The notes below the pieces were generated by a model, which did not search any database, had not been told where the DNA came from, and saw only the letters and a program-made list of their open reading frames with translations. A program made the position numbers and the translations under genes. From Candidatus Woesearchaeota archaeon (lineage in GTDB: Archaea; Nanobdellota; Nanobdellia; Woesearchaeales; GW2011-AR9), in NCBI GenBank assembly GCA_043797205.1, contig JAZDQB010000028.1:4144-68143 (forward strand): a DNA stretch of 64,000 bases, written 5' to 3'. Below are positions 5,974 through 21,503 of the stretch, in pieces; within the stretch, counting starts at the first letter, position 1, and the number at the start of each line of letters is the position of its first letter.

Positions 5974-6531
5974 ATGGTTTTTTCGTTGTGGAGAAAAAGT
6001 TCTTCATCAATACTTTCTGAAGATCAAAAGAAACGATTAGAATCAGATTTAAAAAATGCTGCAGTTACAATTCAAGCTACAATAAAATACCACAAATTAA
6101 ACTCTGGTGGGCAGCGTATTAATCTTCCGCAACATTGGACAGAGTGGGATGGAAATGGGCCTACTCAAATCCTTTATGATGAATGTTATATTGAAGGAGC
6201 AGGTCCCGAAAAAGTTCCAAAAACGGTCTATCTTACAGCAGGAAAAGCATTTGAAGACCTTTCTGATTCGGTCAACCCCTTGCATATTTTATTCTTTGTA
6301 GGAGAACACAGTAAAAAGCAACTAAAAGAGACCATCAGAATTGTGGTTCTTCCCTCTTACCAGAATCAAATACCCACCTATAAAGCAGTAGGTTATTTGG
6401 AGTCATATCAAAAGGACCTTTCCATCCTGGCTAAAATCATTGATTCCAAATCCATTGTTAACATTAAATTTTTCTTAGAGATGATTGAATTCGCAAAGGA
6501 TATCCTTCACCATCATTTCCCGCCGAATTAA
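5974..6531 (+). CDS. hypothetical protein, tandem paralog 2
   Basis: Paralog of 5427..5972, starting 2 nt after its stop. Confidence 0.5.
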   Translation: MVFSLWRKSSSSILSEDQKKRLESDLKNAAVTIQATIKYHKLNSGGQRINLPQHWTEWDGNGPTQILYDECYIEGAGPEKVPKTVYLTAGKAFEDLSDSVNPLHILFFVGEHSKKQLKETIRIVVLPSYQNQIPTYKAVGYLESYQKDLSILAKIIDSKSIVNIKFFLEMIEFAKDILHHHFPPN

Positions 6532-6593
6532 TAGTTATCCAAAAGAAATTTTCCAAACATTTTATAAATTAACGTCGAGAATTAGATAGAAAT

Positions 6594-7595
6594 ATGACTC
6601 CGAAAACAGAGCAGCTCTTACAGCAAGCAGAGAAAGTGTATCAAAAGAATTTTACTAATAGCTGCTGGTTCGAACGCGCCATCTTTTTAAGTTGGTACTG
6701 CGCTTTGGGAGACTGCACTTTCTGCTATATGAGCACCCAAAAGAATAAAATTAAAAATCCTTCCAAAGCAAGACGCACTTTAAGTTCTATTTTAGCAGAA
6801 ATATTAATCACTAAAAAACAGGGATGGAAAATTGAATTCCTTTCCAGCGGTTATGGTGCTTATACTATGGAAGAGATCTTTCAAGTAGTAAAATTAAGTT
6901 CAATCGTAGCCAAAGAAAAATTATGGCTAAATATTGGTTACTTGAATGAAAAACAGATTAAGCCACTGCTTCCTTACATTAAAGGAATTTCTGTATCTAT
7001 CGAAACGGTCAATTGGAAGTTAAGAAAGAAAGTTTGTCCTTCCAAACAGATTAAACCCCTGCTTCAAACTTTAGAATTAGCACAGAAATATGAATTAAAA
7101 AAGGCTATAACTATTATTGTCGGTTTGGGAGAAACGATTAAAGATATAAATGAACTGTTTAAATTCATCAAAAAGTATAATATTAATCGAGTTACTTTTT
7201 ATTCCCTAAATCCGCATCCCGGAACTCCTTTTACTAAGAGCCCAGAAACAGGATACTATTTGCAATGGATTGCTCAAACTCGTTTAAAGTTCCCCACATT
7301 AGAAATCGTCGCTGGAAGTTGGGTCAGTCGTTTAGAAGAAATCCCTTTAGTGTTACGTGCGGGAGCTAACGCTTTCACTAAATTTCCGGCGTTAAAAGAG
7401 CTGGGGGGGAAGAATGCTCGAAAAGTAGAACAAGAGATAAAGAAATCTGACCGAAAGTTAGAAGGAAACTTGAGCCAAACTAAAAAAGCGAATTGGAAGA
7501 AAGAAATTGACACTTTACCCTTAGAAAAAGAGCTTAAAGAACAAATTCTTCTGAAATTAAAGCAATATTTAAAAAGAGCTTCCACTCCTAAATGA
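6594..7595 (+). CDS. radical SAM protein, biotin synthase (BioB/ThiH/HydE)-like, atypical CX4CX2C cluster motif
   Basis: YCALGDCTFCY Cys triad. IIVGLGETIKD resembles BioB GIVGLGETVKD. Also NPHPGTPF and AGANAF, similar to BioB GTPL and AGANS. Confidence 0.55.
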   Translation: MTPKTEQLLQQAEKVYQKNFTNSCWFERAIFLSWYCALGDCTFCYMSTQKNKIKNPSKARRTLSSILAEILITKKQGWKIEFLSSGYGAYTMEEIFQVVKLSSIVAKEKLWLNIGYLNEKQIKPLLPYIKGISVSIETVNWKLRKKVCPSKQIKPLLQTLELAQKYELKKAITIIVGLGETIKDINELFKFIKKYNINRVTFYSLNPHPGTPFTKSPETGYYLQWIAQTRLKFPTLEIVAGSWVSRLEEIPLVLRAGANAFTKFPALKELGGKNARKVEQEIKKSDRKLEGNLSQTKKANWKKEIDTLPLEKELKEQILLKLKQYLKRASTPK

Positions 7596-12416: not shown

Positions 12417-14723
12417 TTATCCTACCACAAACTGTCTATATGCTACCTCATGAACTTGATCATTGCCGATGTAAACTTCTGCCAAGTACTCTCCCGAGAG
12501 AGCTTCTCCCGGAACCTCGATGAAGTTAGTAATGGTCTTGCCCTGTCCTGGTTTCAAATTGAATTCTCCGCTGGACACTTTGATTCCCAAATCATAAACC
12601 ATCACTGTTACTCGTAAATCAGATAAGACTTTATCTCCGGCATTCTCTACTTTTACAGTAAACTGAGTTTGATCACCTAAACTAACTAGTTCCGGAGTGA
12701 ACTGGGCCTTTACCACTTGCAAGCTAGTATGTAAGTCACGCACGTAAATGGTATACTTCTGGCTAGCCGTCCTTACCCCATCCGTAACGCTGATGCTTAC
12801 CGGATAATGTCCTTCACTCTCTGGTACCCATAAGATCAAACCATTCTGACTGATGCTCATTCCGTCCGGTGCTTGAGTCAAAGAGTAAGTCAAAGCTTTA
12901 TGCTCTCCCCCCACTTGAACTTGGTAACTATATTCTACTCCGATCGTTCCCAGAGTAGGCGGAGCAGAGGTAATAGCAAAGTCGGAATACTTACAGCTAT
13001 CATCATCTTTCTCAGCGGCTGCATCATAATTCAAAGCATTTACATCCGTGCATCCTAGTATATAATAAGTACAACTGTCATCATCATGATTAGCGGCAGG
13101 ATTGTAATTTTTAGCAGTAGCATCAGTACATCCTAACACTTCTATCGAACAAGTATTACTAAAAGTATCCCAGCTATGTCCATCCGCAGCACAGACGCGA
13201 TAATCTTCCGTAGAACCGTCCCAGCATTGAGTTAATTCTTCCGTAGTTCCCGGAACACAGTTAACATTATAAGTACAGCTACCGTCGTCTTTAGTAGCGG
13301 CGAAATTATAATTATTAGCTTGGGGATCAGTACAACCAACAACATCATAAACACAACTTCCGTCGTCTTTAACAGCTTGAGAGTTGTAATTCAAAGCTAA
13401 TGGATCAGTACAACCCATAGCATAAACACAACTACCATCGTCTTGGGTAGCAAAAGGATCGTAATTCAAAGCAGTAATATCCATACAACCTAATACAGGT
13501 TGAACTGGACAAACATTACTAAAAACAGTCCAGCTATGTCCATCCGCAGCACAGACGCGATAATCTTCCGTAGAATCATCCCAGCATTGAGTTAATTCTT
13601 CCGTAGTTCCTGGAACACAGTTAACATCATAAGTACAACTGCCATCGTCTTTAGTTGCTAAAGGATTGTAATTATCGGCCTTAGGATCAGTACAACCAAG
13701 TACGTCAACAGGAGCATATTTACAACTGCCATCGTCTTTAGTTGCTAAAGGATTATAATTAGTAGCTTTAGGATCAGTACAACCAAGCACATCAGGAATT
13801 TTTACAGTAAAGAAAAGAGCCCAAGTAAAAGTAGAAGAACAATCACTAGTAACTGTTACCATAGCCACATAATTTCCTGCTTGAGTGAATTTTCCTTTAA
13901 TTTGATCATTTCCACTAGCCGCAAATCCTGCCGGAACCGCAAAACCATTAGAAGTGTCCCAAGTATAACTAACACTGTCAGTACTGACACTCTTAACCAA
14001 ATTTACTTCTACATAATCATTAACAGTAACAGTATAAGTAGGGAATAAAAGTAAAGTTAAGGAATAATCTATAGATACTCCATTTACTTTTCCGTCAGGA
14101 ACAATCCAAGAAGGTTGTTCACAAACCGGTTGAATTGGACAAACATTACTTTTTCCGATCCAACTCATTCCGTCCGCAGCACAGACTTGATAATCTTTTA
14201 CAGAGCCATCCCAACAAGTATTAATAGTATTAGTAGCTCCAGGAGTACAGATAGGAACCTTACAACTGCCATCATCTTTAGTAGCAGCAGGATTATAATT
14301 GATCGCTTTAGGATCGGTACAACCTAGAATATCATTAACCTTTAATTTTAAAGTATCTTGAGCATTACCATTGGCACTTAAAACACTCGCTACTATATTA
14401 TAGTCTCCAGCAGTAGTGGGAGTATAACTTACTATTTCATAAAATTGATTTAAAAGATGAAGATGAGCATAAGGAGTAGCCACCACTGCTCCGTTAGAAT
14501 CGTACACATTAACGTACAAATTGTAATCTGCTGTTCCGTCGCTAATCACGGCAAATTGTACTGCTTTACCAACTTCAGTAGTTAAAGTAGTAATAGTTCC
14601 ATCCGCTTTGCCGTTGATTATCCACAAAGCCATTACGTCAACTTCTCCCGCTGCACATAACGTCGGAAGGATTGCTAACATCAAGACTGCCACTACCACC
14701 CCTAATAGTTGTGATGTCCTCAT
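12417..14723 (-). CDS. large secreted Cys-rich repeat protein (8 copies of a ~26-aa GCTDPxAxNYNPxAxxDDGSC module plus 3 copies of a ~45-aa Cys module)
   Basis: Signal peptide. The same peptide repeats recur throughout, with near-identical DNA repeats (e.g. ~13130-13290 vs ~13490-13650). Confidence 0.65.
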   Translation of the reverse strand: MRTSQLLGVVVAVLMLAILPTLCAAGEVDVMALWIINGKADGTITTLTTEVGKAVQFAVISDGTADYNLYVNVYDSNGAVVATPYAHLHLLNQFYEIVSYTPTTAGDYNIVASVLSANGNAQDTLKLKVNDILGCTDPKAINYNPAATKDDGSCKVPICTPGATNTINTCWDGSVKDYQVCAADGMSWIGKSNVCPIQPVCEQPSWIVPDGKVNGVSIDYSLTLLLFPTYTVTVNDYVEVNLVKSVSTDSVSYTWDTSNGFAVPAGFAASGNDQIKGKFTQAGNYVAMVTVTSDCSSTFTWALFFTVKIPDVLGCTDPKATNYNPLATKDDGSCKYAPVDVLGCTDPKADNYNPLATKDDGSCTYDVNCVPGTTEELTQCWDDSTEDYRVCAADGHSWTVFSNVCPVQPVLGCMDITALNYDPFATQDDGSCVYAMGCTDPLALNYNSQAVKDDGSCVYDVVGCTDPQANNYNFAATKDDGSCTYNVNCVPGTTEELTQCWDGSTEDYRVCAADGHSWDTFSNTCSIEVLGCTDATAKNYNPAANHDDDSCTYYILGCTDVNALNYDAAAEKDDDSCKYSDFAITSAPPTLGTIGVEYSYQVQVGGEHKALTYSLTQAPDGMSISQNGLILWVPESEGHYPVSISVTDGVRTASQKYTIYVRDLHTSLQVVKAQFTPELVSLGDQTQFTVKVENAGDKVLSDLRVTVMVYDLGIKVSSGEFNLKPGQGKTITNFIEVPGEALSGEYLAEVYIGNDQVHEVAYRQFVVG

Positions 14724-14790: not shown

Positions 14791-16254
14791 TTATTTCCAG
14801 TAAACTCCCAGAACACCCATAATCCCCATATCTTTTTGGGTATCTACTCTGAATTCTGGACCGATTCTTATACTCCATTTGTCACCCTTGCTAACATAAC
14901 CGGTAGTGACTCCTGTCGCAAATTCTCCCACAAAGTCATAATCGGTTTTAGAAACATTATTGGATTTTCCAGCCACAGTAGTAGTCCTTTCTAGAGTAGT
15001 TCTCTTAGCTGCTCCACCTGCTTTAAAGTCAAAATCAAGGTATCCTTTAGACACCGCTCGAACTTTAAGTACTGCACCCGCGCCCACTAAGCGATCGATA
15101 GTTTTAGCCTCTTCAGTTTCTTGAACTGCAAAACCTAAATCATCTGTAGTTTTACTGTCGGCTTTACGGTGATTATAACCACCATTAGCGTATCCACCTA
15201 AACGAACTACACCGTTTTCATCTAAAGCACTGGTTACTTGCACTTCTACTTCTACTCCAACGGCACTAGCTCCATTTCCAAAAGCATACACCGCCTTAGC
15301 GATAGCGTCAACCTGTATTGGTTGCTTTACCGGCTGAACCGGCTCCTTATAATTGCAGCCATGTTCTTTCAAGAAATCGATAGCTGTTTTGAAATCGCTT
15401 ACTGCTTTTTCATACTTATCGTTCTTATCTTTCAAAGCAGCGCCTTGTTCTGGACAAGCCGGAACAGCTTCTGTGTATTTTAAAAGTTCTCTTCCTACCG
15501 GAACTTTTCCCTCTTGAGCCGGAACTTTGTCTAGACATTCTTTTAATCCTTTAGTAGCAGTATCGCGAGTATCGCGAGCATTTCTAACATCAGTAAGCAT
15601 ACCTTTCAAGCGAGCATAATCTTCTTTGCAATTATCTCCGCCTAAGGAAACAAAGAAAGTTTCTAAGTCAGAAAGCTTAGCATCAGCTAATGCTTTTTCT
15701 AAAGGAACTCCTTTTCCGCCAGCATTATCTAAACGATCAGTAGCTGCTTTCAAATCGTCAACAGTAGCAAAAGGTTTGGCCTTGGTGGCATCATAACAAT
15801 GAGTGTTAGCTCCAGTACAATAGCCGTCTACTCTTTCAGTTAATCCAAAAGCACCAGCTAAATTATCGTCTAAACAAGTACCATGTTTATCAAATTGAGA
15901 AAGACAGGAAGGTTTTCCCGCAATTGGTTTCTGATCCGGACAGGTAAAGGTGACCACATCATCGCTGCCTAAGGTAGGTAAAGAATATTTTGCACCAGGA
16001 GTACAAGGGATACAATTTTTCTTTCCTGGAACACAGACTTCCAGGTTGACAGTCCCAATTTTATATACCGGCTTAATGCAAGTTCTATCAGCAGAAGTCA
16101 GTGCCTCTAAAGCTGCAGGAGTTAGAGTATCTACTCCCTCTAGAACACTTTCTTGAGGAGCAGGTGTACAAACACGAGTTTGAGCTACAGCAGTTCCGCC
16201 ATAAGCCAAAGTTGCACCAAGAAATAATCCGCTAACCAAAGTTCTTAATCTCAT
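14791..16254 (-). CDS. secreted Cys-rich hypothetical protein
   Basis: Signal peptide MRLRTLVSGLFLGATLAYGGTAVA. Many Cys in the N-terminal half. C-terminus ends in an aromatic residue (...GVLGVYWK). Confidence 0.55.
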   Translation of the reverse strand: MRLRTLVSGLFLGATLAYGGTAVAQTRVCTPAPQESVLEGVDTLTPAALEALTSADRTCIKPVYKIGTVNLEVCVPGKKNCIPCTPGAKYSLPTLGSDDVVTFTCPDQKPIAGKPSCLSQFDKHGTCLDDNLAGAFGLTERVDGYCTGANTHCYDATKAKPFATVDDLKAATDRLDNAGGKGVPLEKALADAKLSDLETFFVSLGGDNCKEDYARLKGMLTDVRNARDTRDTATKGLKECLDKVPAQEGKVPVGRELLKYTEAVPACPEQGAALKDKNDKYEKAVSDFKTAIDFLKEHGCNYKEPVQPVKQPIQVDAIAKAVYAFGNGASAVGVEVEVQVTSALDENGVVRLGGYANGGYNHRKADSKTTDDLGFAVQETEEAKTIDRLVGAGAVLKVRAVSKGYLDFDFKAGGAAKRTTLERTTTVAGKSNNVSKTDYDFVGEFATGVTTGYVSKGDKWSIRIGPEFRVDTQKDMGIMGVLGVYWK

Positions 16255-16367: not shown

Positions 16368-17558
16368 TTAAAACAAACGATACATTTCGTAAACTATTCC
16401 TAAAACAAAAATTAAAATAAGTAAAATCCCTAGAAGAGTAAGTTTGGGTAAAGAATATTCTGGAACTCGCTCTCCTTTTTGCTTTGCTTTCCAATAGGTC
16501 AACACTGTAACAATTCCACTTAATCCCCCGGTAAGAGCCCCCACAATTCCCAAAATGGTAATAAAAGAAGTTAAATTCAATATCGTTATCAATAAAGGAA
16601 GAGAGAAAGTAAACAACAATGCCCAACGATGTTTAATTCCATAATCATATTCATAAATTTGCAATAAGACCATGCTTAAAGCCAAGAAAGAAGTAAACAT
16701 AGTCAATATCGCTAAAATATTCGCAAAAATTCCTAACAGAGGATGAGAATAGATGCTTAAAGCAATAGTAGCAATACGTTCGTTTGGCTGCAATAAATTA
16801 AAATTTTGTACTCCCACTAGACCGACCACAAGCACAGCAAACAGAGCATAAAGGATAATTGGAATAATTGAACCTACTAGAATGGCTACTTTCATTTTTT
16901 TCTTTTCTCGCCCCAATTCTTCCGAGATTTCAGGAATGGCTGCAAAGCCCATGTAAGCAAATAAGATTACCCCGTACGGAAGAAAAACAAAACCCCAAGA
17001 AGCAACATTATAATAATTAGTATTAATTTTGTTAATCGAAAAAATTCCAATCGAAACAACGGTGAGGATTAAAAATGAAACTAAAATCAGTTCTGCTTTT
17101 CCCGTCGCTTTCATCCCTAAGTAAACAATAATGAAACCAATTAAAAAGAAAAATAAAGAGTACATCAAAGGTGAACCCCACGAAAATAAAGAATAAAGCG
17201 TGGCTCCTTCCCCAATCAAATAAGCAGTTAACGCACCATAAGTTCCAAAAATTACAGCCACACCCATGGCCAATTTTCCCCATCTGCCTAAATATTTTTC
17301 TGCATATCCCGCTAGTTGATGTTTAGTTTTAGTACGCAAAACAATCTCTCCCACAAACAGATTTAACAACAGAAAAGCTGCTCCCAATCCCAAAATCCAG
17401 AACAGTCCCAACAGAAATCCGCTTTTCGCTACCACATAAGGAATTCCCAAGATTCCTGCTCCAATAATCGTACCCATTAAAGTACAAATAGCAATAGCAA
17501 GACGATGTCGAGCAAAGAATCCCTTATTGTTAGACACTTCACCGCTTTTTTTGAACAT
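16368..17558 (-). CDS. amino acid permease (APC/HAAAP-type transporter)
   Basis: About 11 TM segments. GTIIGAGILGIPYVV resembles aromatic amino acid permease signatures. Confidence 0.65.
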   Translation of the reverse strand: MFKKSGEVSNNKGFFARHRLAIAICTLMGTIIGAGILGIPYVVAKSGFLLGLFWILGLGAAFLLLNLFVGEIVLRTKTKHQLAGYAEKYLGRWGKLAMGVAVIFGTYGALTAYLIGEGATLYSLFSWGSPLMYSLFFFLIGFIIVYLGMKATGKAELILVSFLILTVVSIGIFSINKINTNYYNVASWGFVFLPYGVILFAYMGFAAIPEISEELGREKKKMKVAILVGSIIPIILYALFAVLVVGLVGVQNFNLLQPNERIATIALSIYSHPLLGIFANILAILTMFTSFLALSMVLLQIYEYDYGIKHRWALLFTFSLPLLITILNLTSFITILGIVGALTGGLSGIVTVLTYWKAKQKGERVPEYSLPKLTLLGILLILIFVLGIVYEMYRLF

Positions 17559-17699
17559 CTTCTTCAGAATACATTTTGGATTTATATAGCTTTCTTTGAA
17601 GTAAAATAAACACTATTATGCTTATTTGCGCAAGGTTTAAATAGGTCAAAAGAATACTTAACTTAGCACGTTTAGATTGTCAAAAGGGGGGTGAGTAGC

Positions 17700-17873
17700 A
17701 TGATCTATGAAGAAGATTATTGTGAGCTATTTGAAGAGGAGCTAGCTTTAGGCAGCGGAGAGAAAACTGCCAAATATTGCGAACTGTGCGAACTGCAAAG
17801 AGCTAACGAGAAGATGGTGACGGAAGTAATGGGAGTAGACATGAAAGACGTCAAAAACAAGATGTTAAAATAA
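17700..17873 (+). CDS. small hypothetical Cys-containing protein
   Basis: G-rich SD (GGGGGTGA) upstream of the ATG. 57 aa with CxxxxxxxxxxxxxxC..C. Weak. Confidence 0.3.
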   Translation: MIYEEDYCELFEEELALGSGEKTAKYCELCELQRANEKMVTEVMGVDMKDVKNKMLK

Positions 17874-17900
17874 TTTTTGTTTTTTTATTTCTTAGTATTT

Positions 17901-18968
17901 TTATTTTAGTGATCTATTTATTTCAATAGTAGAAATATCGTGCGGAAATGTCTTTTCGTATTTATCAATCACTTTTTGTCTTAAAATATAAGTATTGTAA
18001 TGGTGAGCGTACGCCAACCATCCTTCAAATACAGCATAAATTTGGTCGTAGTAAATTTTATTTAGCTCGAATTCTTCTTGCAATAAGAATATCTTCCGTT
18101 CCAGTTTTGGTACGTTTCCTTTTTTTAATAAGCGATGGAATGGGAAAATACGCGCACCTAAAAAAGTTATTCCTTGTTTGATAGAACGAATAGATGTTTT
18201 GTGTGGATGCAAGTGTAATTTTAAGTTAATAGTTAAGAAATTACTGATTTCTTGTCGATAAACTCGGAGCTTATCCTTATTGTTATCTAAAATTACAAAA
18301 TCATCTACGTAACGCAAGTAATATCTAATTTTTAATTTCCTTTTGATAAATTGATCCAGCTCATTCAAGTACACGTTCGCTAAGAATTGGGAAGTTAAGT
18401 TGCCCAAAGGCATTCCTTTATCAAAAGAATGGTTTCTTAATATTTTTCTAATTAACCACATCACTTTTTTATCTTTGATCTTTTTTTCAAGAATACGAAT
18501 TAAGATCGAATGATTTACTTCTTCGAAATAATGCTTTATATCTGCCTTTAACACGAATGTGTTTATGATATGGTTATTAGAAACTATCCTTGAAAAGGAT
18601 TCAAATCTTTTTATCGCTTTAAGAGTACCTTTTCCCTTCCGGTTGGCATAAGAATCATAAATGAAAGAAGTTTCAAAAATAGGTTCAATAAGATTACACA
18701 AAGCGTGATGTATCACTCTATCCCGAAAATGAGCTTTACTAATCTTTCTGGTTTTGGGATCGCGTACAATAAAGGTTTGCAATGGTTTTGGTTGATAAGC
18801 GTGTAAGAGCAGTTCTGTTCTAAGCAAAGAAAGATTATTTTGTAAATCCTTCTCAAATTCCAATACATAAGGCTTTTGCGTTTTATGTTTTCTCGCTTTC
18901 TTGTAAGCAAGATATAAATTATCTTCGCTGCATAATTTATCCCATAAATTACGATAAGTCTTCATGAA
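17901..18968 (-). CDS. DGR reverse transcriptase
   Basis: RT motifs include YVDDFVIL (YxDD) and LGNLTSQ, the DGR-type motif-4 signature I/LGxxxSQ. It lies immediately downstream of the TR. The track ORF extends to 19073 only because the TR is read in frame; the true start is probably MKTYRNLW. Confidence 0.85.
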   Translation of the reverse strand, partial: FMKTYRNLWDKLCSEDNLYLAYKKARKHKTQKPYVLEFEKDLQNNLSLLRTELLLHAYQPKPLQTFIVRDPKTRKISKAHFRDRVIHHALCNLIEPIFETSFIYDSYANRKGKGTLKAIKRFESFSRIVSNNHIINTFVLKADIKHYFEEVNHSILIRILEKKIKDKKVMWLIRKILRNHSFDKGMPLGNLTSQFLANVYLNELDQFIKRKLKIRYYLRYVDDFVILDNNKDKLRVYRQEISNFLTINLKLHLHPHKTSIRSIKQGITFLGARIFPFHRLLKKGNVPKLERKIFLLQEEFELNKIYYDQIYAVFEGWLAYAHHYNTYILRQKVIDKYEKTFPHDISTIEINRSLK

Positions 18969-18991
18969 CAAAAATCCTAGCCCAGCCAAGG

Positions 18992-19082
18992 TTATTCCGA
19001 GAAAACGGGCATTGTTGTTGAGATTGTTGTTGCCATTAAGGTTGTTGTTATGGTTGTTGCCCAAGACCAGCAAGCGCCCGCC
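18992..19082 (-). repeat. DGR template repeat (TR), ~91 nt
   Basis: Coding-strand sequence GCGGGCGCTTGCTGGTCTTGGGC(AAC AAC CAT AAC AAC AAC CTT AAT GGC AAC AAC AAT CTC AAC AAC AAT)GCCCGTTTTCTCGG. Twelve AAY codons. Identical to the VR except at adenines. Coordinates +/-2 nt. Confidence 0.85.
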
Positions 19083-19280
19083 TCTGTGTAGCTCTTTTAT
19101 CGTTATGCCACTGCTGCTTCGGTCTTTCCTTGCGTACTAGAGGTCGCAGCTGTATTTATCCTATTAGAACGTGTCTAATCGAAAGATTTTATGATGAGTC
19201 GCCTCAATCGTGATGAAAGAGCATGTAACCTTAGTATTGGCGGCATAACCGCTGTGGCTAAGATGAAGAAAAGTAAAGAA

Positions 19281-20087
19281 TTATCCTTTATATTGTTTTC
19301 TCAAATCACGACGTACTGCAGCTTCGTATTGCTTACGAACTGCTTCAGGAACGAATCTTTGTGAAGAAGCAAAAACCGTATTTAAGACCGTTTCTAAACT
19401 AGGAACAGTTCCTTTTTGCACTTCGCGCCCTGCGGGCGCACTCTCACCTACGACGCCTATCCGACGTACCCCGAGAAAACGGGCATTGCCGTTGAGAACG
19501 TAGTCGCCAACAAGGTTGCTGCCATGGCCGTAGCCCAAGACCAGCAAGCGCCCGCGAGGTTCTTCCGCCAGATCATCGCTATGCCAAATCCCAATATTGT
19601 CTCCATAAACTTTACGATGTTTAGCTAAATATCTCTTGGCAATATCTTCTCCACCTAAAAAAGGAATGGTTTGGGGATGCTCTAAAGCCGCATCAACAGA
19701 AATAACTTCAGAAGTAGATCTCTTCAAAACATCATAATCAACTTTGAAAACTTTACCATCGTCAATACGACCAGCTAAAGCATCAAATTCTTCTTGAGGA
19801 AAAGGTCCGGCACCATTTCGATGATGTTCTCGAGCATATTTTAGTTGTTCTGAATCATTCCAAGAAGTTTGGTCCTGAACGTAAAGAACGATCTTGCTGC
19901 CCCCTTTAGTAGTTCCCGTAATTCTTAAACTAGGAGTAGTCCACCAATTGGTAAACAAGTAGCTGTCATTCTTAGCTTTGATTCTTTTTTCAGCCAGTTC
20001 GGGCATATAAACAGCATCGTGAGCAACTTGACAAGCACGCAGAGCTTCTTCCATTATAGCATTGTAAAAAGGTTGATTTTTATTCAT
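19281..20087 (-). CDS. DGR target protein (variable protein), fold unknown
   Basis: 268-aa ORF containing the VR at about residues 178-207 (...GRLLVLGYGHGSNLVGDYVLNGNARFLGV...). No signal peptide. Confidence 0.8.
   Translation of the reverse strand: MNKNQPFYNAIMEEALRACQVAHDAVYMPELAEKRIKAKNDSYLFTNWWTTPSLRITGTTKGGSKIVLYVQDQTSWNDSEQLKYAREHHRNGAGPFPQEEFDALAGRIDDGKVFKVDYDVLKRSTSEVISVDAALEHPQTIPFLGGEDIAKRYLAKHRKVYGDNIGIWHSDDLAEEPRGRLLVLGYGHGSNLVGDYVLNGNARFLGVRRIGVVGESAPAGREVQKGTVPSLETVLNTVFASSQRFVPEAVRKQYEAAVRRDLRKQYKG
19425..19439 (-). other. GC-rich hairpin ~27 nt downstream of the VR 3' end (candidate DGR target-recognition hairpin)
   Basis: GCGCCC-GCA-GGGCGC on the coding strand (6-bp GC stem, 3-nt loop), in the position where DGR VR-proximal hairpin/cruciform elements are found. 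Confidence 0.5.
19466..19555 (-). repeat. DGR variable repeat (VR)
   Basis: 90-nt match to the TR with 16 mismatches. Every mismatch is at a TR adenine (AAC->TAC, GGC, GGC, AGC; AAT->GTT; AAC->GAC, TAC; AAT->GTT; AAC->GGC; GGA->GGG; ATA->GTA). Confidence 0.85.
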
Positions 20088-20312
20088 TGTTTCACCGAAG
20101 CTAACAAAAAGGGAGGTAATATTTAAATGTTTTGCTACTTTAAAGTTGTAATCCAGAAAGGAGCTGTTGGGAAAAAGCCACTACCCACTGGTCACAAGAA
20201 ATAAGAAAACTATCTTATTTCTGTGCAGAAATGAAGAGTTCCCCTTCATTTCTTGCAAGTCCGGCTAAGGTATATAAACCACCTCTTCTTTAAGCTTAAT
20301 CAGGTGGTTGAA

Positions 20313-20705
20313 ATGGAAAACGCTTTAGCCGTATTTGAAGGTAAGAAAATTAGAAAAACTTGGCATAATAATGAATGGTGGTTTGTAATCGAAGATGTAG
20401 TTCAAGCTTTGACCGATTCTAATGACCCTAAGCAGTATATCAATAAAATGAGACAAAGAGATGAAATTTTGTCTCAAGGGTGGGTACAAATTGTACATAC
20501 CTTTTTGGTAGATACTTCTGGTGGTAAGCAGAATATGAATTGTTCTAATACAGAAGGATTATTTCGTATAATCCAGTCTATTCCTTCTATAAAAGTTGAA
20601 CCTTTCAAATTATGGTTAGCTAAAGTGGGTTATGAACGTGTTCAAGAGATTCAGAATCCGGAATTAGCTCAAGATAAAGTTAAACGATATCCATTATTTT
20701 GTTAA
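20313..20705 (+). CDS. Bro-N domain protein (phage/virus antirepressor-like)
   Basis: ALAVFEGKKIRKTWHNNEWWFVIEDVVQAL...NTEGLFRIIQSIPSIKVEPFKLWLAKVGYERV matches the Bro-N architecture. SD AGGTGGT lies before MENALAV. Confidence 0.65.
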   Translation: MENALAVFEGKKIRKTWHNNEWWFVIEDVVQALTDSNDPKQYINKMRQRDEILSQGWVQIVHTFLVDTSGGKQNMNCSNTEGLFRIIQSIPSIKVEPFKLWLAKVGYERVQEIQNPELAQDKVKRYPLFC

Positions 20706-20870
20706 TTACAACTAGAAAAAAGAGGTAAGGTCAGAACTCTTAACAAAAACTTTTCCCTTTGAACAAGGTCGTCAGACTCCTACCTAAAAGTTTTTTGTGA
20801 GTTCTGCCAAACTACCTCCTTTTCCGAATACTCTAGGCTTTAATGCTTGAAAAGCTTAGAGGTGAAATAA

Positions 20871-21503
20871 ATGGAAAATAAATTAAAATTAGCAGAAATC
20901 GTTGGAATAATGCTTGGTGACGGATGTTTGTATAAAGAAAAGCGACGTAATCGTTATCAAACAACTATTTGTTTTCATAAAAAAGAAACAGATTACTTAA
21001 GTCATGTTAAGATACTATTTGAAGATTATTTTAAATACAAATTTTACGTAACTGAAATAGCGCATGAAATGTTGCTTAGAAACGGTAGTTTAGTAGTAGG
21101 AGAAAAGTTAATCAGCTTTGGATTATATCCTGGAAGTAAGATTGATAACAAAGTAGTAATCCCTTCTTGGATATTTAGTAATAAAGAATTCATTAAAAGA
21201 ACAGTGAGAGGACTTTTTGATACGGATGGATGCGTTTACAAGAAATATGATAGATATGCTCAGATTGTCTTTAAATTTGGATGCAAAGAAACTACTAACT
21301 CTTTAAGAGAAGCTATAATTATTTTGGGTTTTAATCCAACTAAAACCGAGAAGGGATATAATAAAGCGAAGCACACCTTTTTTCATAAATTCTATCTATC
21401 CAGACAAGGTGAAATTAAGAAGTTCTTTCAAAAGATAGAACCAAAAAATCCAAAGCATGTTAAAAGGTATGAGAAAATAAGAGGTGGGGACGCCGCGATT
21501 TGA
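20871..21503 (+). CDS. free-standing LAGLIDADG homing endonuclease (double-motif)
   Basis: Two LAGLIDADG motifs: IVGIMLGDGCL and VRGLFDTDGCV. SD AGAGGTGA upstream. Confidence 0.8.
   Translation: MENKLKLAEIVGIMLGDGCLYKEKRRNRYQTTICFHKKETDYLSHVKILFEDYFKYKFYVTEIAHEMLLRNGSLVVGEKLISFGLYPGSKIDNKVVIPSWIFSNKEFIKRTVRGLFDTDGCVYKKYDRYAQIVFKFGCKETTNSLREAIIILGFNPTKTEKGYNKAKHTFFHKFYLSRQGEIKKFFQKIEPKNPKHVKRYEKIRGGDAAI

Follow-up and report, generated by a model that had tools for sequence, protein, structure and literature searches.

A compact AvpA-type diversity-generating retroelement with a structured RNA, a probable scaffold, beside its template repeat in a Woesearchaeota archaeon

Analysis of a 64,000-nucleotide stretch of DNA from a Candidatus Woesearchaeota archaeon, referred to here as the window, reveals a minus-strand cassette that is very probably an intact, protein-minimal, chromosomal diversity-generating retroelement (DGR) of the AvpA type in a tiny archaeon of the DPANN group. 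The type is a known one: AvpA-type DGRs were first described in 2015-2016 in Nanoarchaeota (PMC4372165, PMC5006420), and the fold of the target protein, that of the AvpA C-type lectin, has already been solved and is not new. [quoted passage not shown] The three features that it singled out as unusual (the lack of avd, an internal VR and a possibly new target fold) all turn out to match known DGRs or AvpA.

The cassette is arranged in the order target gene, RT-16 RNA, TR and RT along the minus strand (Table 1), with 315 nt between the stop codon of the target and the start codon of the RT, the latter lying 32 nt past the TR. The stretch of some 200 nt between the target and the TR had been read as plain spacer, but what separates the stop codon of the target from the TR is a structured RNA, the Rfam motif RT-16, which scores above its gathering threshold and is matched at full length (model positions 1-158 of 158). 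A search of the 64-kb window for an additional VR, TR, RT or AvpA-like gene found none.

Table 1. Coordinates of the features of the cassette, numbered from the first nucleotide of the window.
Feature	Position	Strand	Description
RT	17901..18965	-	354 aa, ATG at 18965; DGR clade, with YVDD and LGNLTSQ
Long-range helix, 3' strands	18975..18991	-	Two parts; ends 10 nt before the RT start codon
IMH* GGAATAAC	18991..18998	-	TR 3' end; marks the TR as invariant donor
TR core	18997..19081	-	85 nt; 25 adenines, 12 AAY codons plus one CAT
RT-16 RNA (Rfam RF03019)	19083..19263	-	cmscan 53.7 bits against a gathering score of 50
Target gene	19281..20087	-	268-aa AvpA-like variable protein
GC-rich hairpin/cruciform GCGCCC-GCA-GGGCGC	19425..19439	-	DNA fold; within the target ORF, codons 217-221
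IMH GGGGTACG	19465..19472	-	VR 3' end; marks the VR as recipient
VR core	19471..19555	-	85 nt; residues about 178-206, GRLLVLGYGHGSNLVGDYVLNGNARFLG; direct repeat with the TR

The TR and VR form a single direct repeat of 85 nt with 84% identity, and no second repeat of about that length is present in the 4 kb between positions 17000 and 21000. It is apparent from the alignment that the mismatches within this core are restricted to TR adenines, as had been anticipated: all 14 fall at such positions (10 A>G and 4 A>T), an outcome with a chance probability of 1.2e-9 given 25 adenines in 85 nt, and all sit at the first or second position of AAY codons. A 4-nt extension at the 3' end adds two further A>G differences (18996/18995 versus 19470/19469) and brings the total to the 16 counted previously; their assignment to TR adenines stands, but these last two constitute the discriminator between IMH and IMH* and are not products of mutagenesis. 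Similarly, the repeat of about 90 nt reported earlier is real, but its outermost positions (19082/19556, G versus C, and 18992/19466, A versus C) lie outside it. The repertoire, previously put at more than 10^13 on the basis of the 12 AAY codons, computes to 5.2e14 protein variants and 1.1e15 DNA variants when the one CAT codon is added, and in an alignment of 50 members of the target family the hypervariable block coincides with the VR stretch only. The 5' and 3' constant parts of the TR may, tentatively, form a stem (90% of cells paired, with compensatory double changes at three of seven pairs, in three sequences each), although the modest support that these figures lend it is confounded by coding constraint.

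At their 3' ends the VR and TR carry GGGGTACG and GGAATAAC respectively, and the sole difference between the two is GG versus AA. The same IMH/IMH* pair is found at the VR and TR 3' ends in 14 of 16 other RT-linked cassettes; in those of loci L025 and L045 the detected repeat stops short of the 3' end. Corresponding sequences in the Nanoarchaeota DGRs are TGGGGT (IMH) and TGGAAT (IMH*) (PMC4372165). The GC-rich hairpin is positioned 31 nt downstream of the VR core, and equivalent GCGCC...GGCGC hairpins are present at related loci.

The target protein has no signal peptide and gave no matches to Pfam or NCBIfam profiles, and was identified through a PDB sequence search and a fold search alone. 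A phmmer comparison aligns its residues 5-259 with residues 9-251 of the AvpA chain (PDB 5IOO) at an E value of 1.7e-63, and the AF2 model, submitted to a fold search, likewise gives the AvpA C-type-lectin fold. Sequence and model structure thus both place the predicted fold in the AvpA subclass of C-type lectins, contrary to the earlier view that no C-type lectin was recognisable and that the fold might be new. Three motifs are conserved in AvpA, GxxVVVYAH, HPxxxPFxG and RFxGV (PMC5006420). The latter two are present as HPQTIPFLG and RFLGV, whereas the first reads GSKIVLYVQ, in which the G, V and Y are kept and the H is replaced by Q. The VR, at residues 178-207, is indeed not C-terminal, with 61 residues remaining after it, but this is not unusual, as AvpA has the same layout; AvpA and other Nanoarchaeota targets have an internal VR, a tail of about 46 residues that includes two helices, and a hairpin within the coding region (PMC5006420, PMC4372165). 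In the AF2 model of the present target, the tail following the VR forms helices at residues 231-242 and 248-266, and the hairpin-encoded residues 217-221 fall in a segment (212-225) with pLDDT below 50.

The resemblance extends to the entire element when the Nanoarchaeota AvpA DGR (SCGC AAA011-G17 / DUSEL4; PMC4372165, PMC5006420; PDB 5IOO; our locus L057) is used as the reference. Both have a target gene, an interval of about 300 nt and then the RT, with targets homologous in sequence and fold; in each, the VR comprises about 27-30 codons, of which 12 are variable and of AAY type, has a repertoire of at least 1e13, and sits internally, ahead of a flexible linker and two helices. Also shared are a hairpin within the ORF that encodes disordered residues, an IMH of GGGGT versus an IMH* of GGAAT, the protein motifs HPxxxPFxG and RFxGV, an RT-16 RNA directly 5' of the TR and the lack of an Avd-family gene. 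The two also differ: amino-acid identity is 46-49%, the host of the window is a Woesearchaeota MAG with locus tag V2A62_04720, the C-terminal tail runs to 61 residues as against 46, the loop of the hairpin reads GCA where GRA is reported for Nanoarchaeota DGRs, and the first family motif departs from GxxVVVYAH as described above.

The absence of avd noted in the original prediction is confirmed: between target and RT the coding strand contains no ORF that reaches 40 aa, and none of the 10 small ORFs of the window matches the Avd family (PF05635). Nor is there a conserved accessory gene in the 3.5 kb around the cassettes when 16 of them are compared. The absence is not, however, unusual. Wu et al. 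report avd in about 74% of DGRs and its absence from 26% (PMC5758913), and TR-RT cassettes without accessory genes (Architecture A, with no avd, HRDC, MSL or CH1), whose core organization is that of the present cassette, make up 29% of catalogued DGRs (PMC5758913). Most CPR/DPANN DGRs in the same study differ in having architecture B3, with a reverse-strand avd between the TR and RT (PMC5758913); the present cassette has no room for such a gene because its TR-to-RT gap is only 32 nt. Two neighboring genes were considered as possible Avd substitutes and rejected. A 57-aa acidic ORF downstream of the RT is present in the closest relatives only, and a Bro-N gene upstream of the target is present only in the closest relatives and in the more distant L016, where it is about 2.6 kb downstream of the RT; with an occurrence in 4 of 16 cassettes, these genes look like synteny and not like parts of the cassette. 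Should Avd be as essential here as in BPP-1, activity of the cassette would require some substitute for it.

The order target, RT-16, TR, RT is common to 16 related cassettes, 14 of them distinct (RT-16 was not detected in L045). Mismatches between TR and VR are restricted to adenines in L001/L006, L003-L005, L011, L012, L025, L026, L049, L057 and L059; there is one non-A mismatch in each of L016, L035 and L055 and several in L040 and L064, and L045 and L048 yielded no resolved TR/VR pair. In one related genome, a single TR serves three targets. Poly-G tracts were noted in the RT genes of L025, L035, L049, L055, L059 and L064, and may reflect phase variation, slippage or assembly error. Comparison with L001 reveals that the TR and VR evolve in concert. 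The two TRs differ by one C/T substitution that is mirrored in each genome's own VR, TR-A sites account for 13 of the 14 differences that separate the VRs, and the window has no non-A TR/VR mismatch in 85 nt even though the surrounding gene is only 86% identical to that of L001. The mirrored substitution and the confinement of VR differences to TR-A sites provide indirect evidence, drawn from comparative sequence data, that the DGR is or has been active. JGI metagenomes contained no match to a pattern with N at every TR-A position, and the only hits of a looser pattern for the 3' half of the VR came from two other lineages, L068 and that of the L003 contig, both of which have TRs of their own, so that no within-lineage VR variants were found.

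Two alternative views of the cassette need to be weighed. The RT is readily recognized by Pfam RVT_1 (E 3.6e-24), and its best PDB match is 8ub7 (E 3.6e-49, 171 bits), a chain shown by tblastn against BPP-1 to be 100% identical to BPP-1 brt; the next RT, of group II/retron type, follows at 2e-21 and 80 bits. The RT is a close relative of bRT, the RT of the prototype DGR, with which it aligns end to end, YVDD with YMDD and LGNLTSQ with IGSLTSQ, in agreement with the motifs initially recognized, and it fits the DGR form of motif 4, [ILV]GxxxSQ, plus YxDD. The notion that it is nonetheless a group II intron or retron RT, and the TR and VR an unrelated duplication, deserves virtually no credence and is effectively refuted. 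It is true that group_II_RT_mat (TIGR04416) is the top NCBIfam match and that homologues go by database names such as 'group II intron RT' and 'retron-type RT', but its 160.6 bits are far under the cut-off of 300, as are the 57.9 against the retron model NF038233 under its cut-off of 235. Moreover, bRT is easily the best solved relative, an Rfam scan of positions 17800-20200 detected no group II intron RNA and no retron ncRNA family, and adenine-only mismatches together with an IMH/IMH* pair are specific to DGRs. Could the cassette instead be a decayed DGR, a fossil whose VR is now frozen? We regard this as improbable, notwithstanding that no Avd homologue was found, that neither of the two metagenome scans yielded VR variants within the population, and that Wu et al. 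discarded over half of their candidate DGRs as inactivated (PMC5758913). The RT has an undamaged ORF with its catalytic motifs and aligns with bRT throughout; IMH, IMH*, the hairpin and RT-16 are likewise all intact. Non-adenine mismatches are wholly lacking from the 85 nt while the neighboring coding DNA stands at 14% divergence from its nearest counterpart; the VR also carries the one substitution by which the TR departs from that of L001, and DGRs without Avd are common (PMC5758913).

The RT-16 RNA is a consistent component of these elements. It is located directly 5' of the TR in 16 of 17 AvpA-type cassettes (54-92 bits; L045 is the one without a detected copy), its nucleotide identity to the L001 counterpart is 95% compared with 86% for the flanking genes, and its main stems covary. 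This combination of position, conservation and covariation suggests that RT-16 probably serves as a scaffold at the 5' side of the DGR RNA. To our knowledge, the motif has so far been without an assigned function. In the paper that describes these motifs (PMC5737381), RT-1 to RT-19 are said only to lie near RT genes, and RT-10 alone is tied to a DGR, being located in the BPP-1 spacer between TR and RT. Here, RT-16 adjoins a DGR TR and pairs with sequence 3' of it.

The pairing across the TR is a long-range helix in two parts, CCTTGGC (18985-18991) with ACTAAGG (19229-19235) and GCTAGGA (18975-18981) with TCTTAGC (19257-19263), so that the RT-16 core, the TR and IMH* all lie within it. It covaries: among 17 cassettes, 90% of cells are paired over its 14 pairs and 12 of these show compensatory double changes, while none of 500 shuffles was as good and slid registers were 22-55% paired. 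RNAalifold predicted part of it, and in an unbiased scan the part joining 19257-19263 to 18975-18981 ranked second among all helices, with that joining 19229-19235 to 18985-18991 below the scan's 80% pairing threshold. The scan found no template:primer duplex for the TR 3' end of the kind formed by TR and Sp in BPP-1, and no priming site was identified. The complementarity around the TR might alternatively act in translational control of the RT, or as an alternative-pairing switch with the P1 hairpin of RT-16. Indeed, the purine-rich 3' strand (AGGA, AAGA), 10 nt before the RT start, resembles a ribosome-binding site, and the same 5' strand can also take part in the local P1 stem of the Rfam model, which has 90% of its cells paired. 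We think such a role rather unlikely, as 8 of 15 sequences leave the local pair 10-69 open, whereas pairing of these columns with their two long-range partners holds in 14 of 15 and 16 of 17, and a duplex of upstream and downstream sequences enclosing the TR is present in BPP-1 and about 207 other DGRs (bioRxiv 10.1101/2023.10.23.563531). The roles of a DGR RNA helix and of an RT control element or switch do not, in any case, exclude each other.

The prototype DGR of BPP-1 (mtd-avd-TR-brt) shares with the present cassette its adenine-specific TR-to-VR differences, a homologous RT, IMH and IMH*, a GC hairpin downstream of the VR, a C-type-lectin-fold target with 12 variable residues, and a duplex of TR-upstream and TR-downstream sequences that loops out the template. 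The present cassette departs from it in having no Avd, in the placement of its structured RNA, RT-16, upstream of the TR, in a VR that is not C-terminal and in its location on a cellular archaeal chromosome rather than in a phage tail-fibre gene. By analogy with BPP-1, cDNA synthesis, cis-priming and homing may be envisaged here as well. A single transcript would contain the RT-16 RNA, the TR, IMH* and the RT coding region; the RT would copy the TR into cDNA with misincorporation opposite template adenines, and the mutagenised cDNA would replace the VR in the target gene, the direction of transfer being set by IMH versus IMH* and the transfer assisted by the nearby GC hairpin. The 12 AAY codons and one CAT codon would be rewritten, giving up to 5e14 variants, and the altered residues would form the ligand-binding surface of the AvpA-homologous protein; the published proposal for AvpA-type targets is interaction with a host or symbiont. 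By the same analogy, RT-16 and the long-range helix would do the job of the Sp RNA, the avd:Sp duplex and Avd. We further raise, as a tentative suggestion on which we would not yet rely, that in AvpA-type DPANN DGRs the RT is the only protein needed and Avd is dispensable as the RNA, with RT-16 as its scaffold, does more. Were the RNA to serve in this way, the covarying helix would join RT-16 to the 20 nt downstream of IMH* and thereby hold the template in a closed loop, an arrangement that would correspond, in rearranged and perhaps circularly permuted form, to the Sp RNA of BPP-1 and its 'cPRT stop' duplex.

Taken alone, this locus is one more well-preserved DGR in a class already catalogued in DPANN archaea and changes little. 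Its value lies in its being clean and compact, with a single target, TR and RT and without accessory genes, and together with its relatives it provides a testable picture of how the template RNA might be organized in a DGR without Avd, a picture that links the orphan Rfam motif RT-16 to a function. A small module of an RT plus an RNA could also be tried in the development of targeted-mutagenesis tools. Should the RNA indeed act as the scaffold that replaces Avd, then these archaea would carry the smallest self-contained DGR mutagenesis module described, consisting of an RT gene of about 1.07 kb and an RNA of about 0.3 kb.

[quoted passage not shown] On the minus strand the target ORF is followed by about 200 nt of non-coding DNA, the A-rich repeat and the RT gene, and the TR/VR pair is the sole long repeat found by a repeat search of the surrounding 4 kb (17000–21000). 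The two copies have 14 mismatches, every one at a TR adenine (10 A>G and 4 A>T) that is the first or second base of an AAY codon; given 25 adenines per 85 nt, the probability of such an adenine-only pattern is 1.2e-9. The predicted confinement to TR adenines thus holds throughout the core of the repeat, although two of the 16 differences originally counted are of another kind. Both are A>G and sit at the 3′ margin of the repeat (TR GGAATA, VR GGGGTA), where the ends of VR and TR, termed IMH and IMH*, differ. The same GG/AA pair is present in 14 of 16 other RT-linked cassettes (in loci L025 and L045 the detected repeat stopped short of the 3′ end and the pair was not covered), and TGGGGT versus TGGAAT is the IMH/IMH* signature of Nanoarchaeota DGRs (PMC4372165). 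Because the pair recurs and is published, we regard the two sites as a directionality signal and not as products of mutagenesis. The TR contains 12 AAY codons and one CAT, allowing 5.2e14 possible protein variants; no additional VR, TR, RT or target paralogue was found elsewhere in the 64-kb window.

Features of the DGR and its surroundings (window positions)
Feature	Position	Strand	Remarks
Target ORF	19281-20087	minus	268 aa
VR	19471-19555	minus	85-nt direct repeat with TR
GC hairpin	19425-19439		GCGCCC-GCA-GGGCGC, within target ORF
RT-16 RNA (Rfam RF03019)	19083-19263	minus	full-length match, 53.7 bits (gathering score 50)
TR	18997-19081	minus	85-nt direct repeat with VR
TR constant parts	19075-19081 : 19004-19010	minus	5′ GCGGGCG, 3′ GCCCGTT
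Outer helix part	19257-19263 : 18975-18981	minus	first 7 nt of RT-16
Inner helix part	19229-19235 : 18985-18991	minus	7 nt just 5′ of conserved CUACAYGC box; partner strand directly after IMH*
RT (RVT_1)	17901-18965	minus	354 aa, natural start ATG 18965, stop 17901
57-aa acidic ORF	17700-17873	plus	three cysteines
Permease gene	16368-17558		
Secreted cysteine-rich proteins	12417-14723, 14791-16254	minus	
Bro-N gene and neighbouring LAGLIDADG gene	20313-20705 and 20871-21503	plus	

The closest solved structure to the RT is PDB 8ub7 (E 3.6e-49, 171 bits), a chain with 100% identity to the brt protein of the prototype DGR, that of Bordetella phage BPP-1; group II intron-type and retron-type RTs come next among solved structures, at about 80 bits. 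In an alignment with bRT, the RT motifs LGNLTSQ and YVDD correspond to IGSLTSQ and YMDD. NCBIfam contains no model for DGRs, and the RT scores far under the cut-offs of its group II intron (160.6 bits, cut-off 300) and retron (57.9 bits, cut-off 235) models; no intron or retron RNA families were detected around the cassette. Alignment to bRT also shows that the true start is ATG 18965. The TR shares the reading frame of the RT ORF and is free of stop codons (18965–19073 on the minus strand; 6016–7194 in related locus L003), so that RT models of 390–392 aa run about 36 extra codons through it; ORF finders and gene callers give this over-extended model, including the NCBI protein for this MAG.

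Three features were originally called unusual, but all are standard in the group to which this element belongs, the AvpA-type DGRs of DPANN archaea, which have been known since 2015–2016. The impression of a possible new ligand-binding fold arose because profile libraries gave no match to the target; the AvpA-type fold is already solved. The target sequence is the same as that of a hypothetical protein from a Candidatus Woesearchaeota MAG; it has about 50 homologues, all those with a source name being from DPANN archaea. The family alignment is well conserved up to residue ~175 and includes a hypervariable block of the form xxxxxGLxGxxxLxxxGRFxGV; two of three AvpA family motifs (HPQTIPFLG and RFLGV) are present in the target, and the third, GxxVVVYAH, reads GSKIVLYVQ. 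In AvpA, the variable protein of the Nanoarchaeota DGR, 12 variable residues give about 1e13 variants, the VR is internal and followed by 46 residues predicted as two helices, and the hairpin lies within the coding region and encodes disordered residues (PMC5006420). The target likewise has an internal VR, followed by 61 residues, and in its predicted structure residues 212–225, including hairpin codons 217–221, have pLDDT below 50 and precede two helices.

The reported lack of the accessory gene avd stands: no coding-strand ORF of at least 40 aa lies between target and RT, and none of the 10 small ORFs of the window matches the Avd family. It is not exceptional, however, as 26% of DGRs lack avd, 29% have an accessory-free TR-RT architecture, and no avd was found elsewhere in those genomes (Wu et al., PMC5758913). 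Apart from target and RT, no gene family within 3.5 kb is common to more than 4 of 16 related cassettes. The 57-aa acidic ORF, which follows the RT closely but on the other strand, has no family match; it is 77–86% identical in the closest relatives, L001 and L003, and absent from more distant cassettes. A divergent Bro-N domain gene adjoins the target and is kept in L001, L003 and L016; the free-standing LAGLIDADG endonuclease gene beside it looks like a mobile insertion, since it occurs in the window and L001 but not in L003. Downstream, the permease gene separates the DGR from genes for two large secreted cysteine-rich proteins, one of which (12417–14723) has many tandem copies of a ~30-aa motif, LGCTDPxAxNYNPxAtkDDGSC.

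A scan of species-representative genomes identified 62 AvpA-like loci, mostly in DPANN MAGs with a few in other-labelled bins. In 16 related loci, representing 14 distinct cassettes, the AvpA-like gene is followed after ~300 nt by an RT gene of the same strand; among these loci is L057 (Nanoarchaeota SCGC AAA011-G17), a single-cell genome of the kind in which AvpA-type DGRs were first described (PMC4372165). TR/VR mismatches are adenine-only in most related cassettes, with one non-A mismatch in a few and several in L040 and L064; L045 and L048 gave no resolved TR/VR pair. The TR of the closest relative, L001 (RT 87% identical), differs from that of the window at one C/T site, and in both the VR mirrors its own TR, whereas the two VRs have 14 differences, 13 at TR-A positions; flanking coding DNA is only 86% identical. 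Judged by sequence comparison, such a pattern is the mark left by TR-to-VR transfer once the two lineages had separated. No within-population VR variants were found in metagenome scans.

On contig DATDVR010000006.1 (Nanoarchaeia) one TR/RT matches the VRs of three AvpA-like paralogues (L011, L013 and L028) spread over ~30 kb, with mismatches nearly all at adenines; AvpA-type DGRs can therefore diversify remote targets, and this one may have targets beyond the window. Of the 62 loci, about 44 lack an RT within 6 kb. AvpA-like genes also occur in MAGs labelled Methanosarcinales (L019, L029, L030, L032, L037 and L044) and Planctomycetota (L042); binning contamination is the most likely cause, as the family is otherwise restricted to DPANN.

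Six related cassettes (L025, L035, L049, L055, L059 and L064) have an RT frame that is interrupted at the same conserved site, immediately before motif 4 (LGNLTSQ), where a poly-G run of 7–10 nt in AT-rich DNA precedes CGA(A/C)(C/G)GA; in five of them exactly one further G would restore the frame. At this site L070 carries an in-frame G12 and two database homologues an in-frame GGGG; the window RT has no such break. The interrupted frames could reflect a homopolymer assembly error, or else phase variation or slippage that controls expression of the RT; we found no literature linking DGRs with homopolymeric tracts.

The original prediction passed over the gap between target and TR, which is a structured RNA, RT-16, an Rfam motif to which no function has been assigned. 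In 16 of 17 related cassettes, among them L057, an RT-16 RNA (54–92 bits) immediately precedes the TR, and the stretch is better conserved between the window and L001 (95% identity) than the neighbouring genes. RT-1 to RT-19 were described only as motifs near RT genes, and only RT-10 among them was tied to a DGR (Weinberg et al., PMC5737381). An alignment of the 17 cassettes, covering RT-16, the TR and the sequence up to the RT start, reveals a two-part long-range helix of 14 pairs, with 90% of cells paired and compensatory double changes at 12 pairs; none of 500 shuffles was as good, and pairing fell to 22–55% when the partner was slid. When the whole alignment was scanned without bias, the outer part ranked second among helices and the inner part stayed under the 80% pairing threshold of that scan. 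The Rfam model has a local P1 hairpin, the base of which is less well supported than the long-range helix. By linking the 5′ end of RT-16 with the 20 nt that follow IMH*, the helix encloses the TR. The 5′ and 3′ constant parts of the TR can also pair, looping out the A-rich variable part; scored at columns 237–244 with 314–320 of alignment A4, 90% of cells are paired in the 17 cassettes, a signal confounded by coding constraint, and only 3 of 7 pairs have compensatory double changes, in three sequences each.

The Sp RNA of BPP-1, which follows the TR, makes two adjacent duplexes, one with the TR 3′ end and one with sequence 5′ of the TR; upstream:downstream duplexes of the latter kind are predicted in 207 DGRs (bioRxiv 10.1101/2023.10.23.563531). 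The archaeal helix resembles this arrangement, but here the structured RNA is mostly upstream of the TR and the gap from TR to RT start is only 32 nt; the unbiased scan of the 17-cassette alignment yielded no candidate template:primer duplex. By analogy, we infer that RT-16 and the long-range helix constitute a DGR RNA that would position the template for the RT without Avd, and together they may organise an Avd-independent, protein-minimal DGR.
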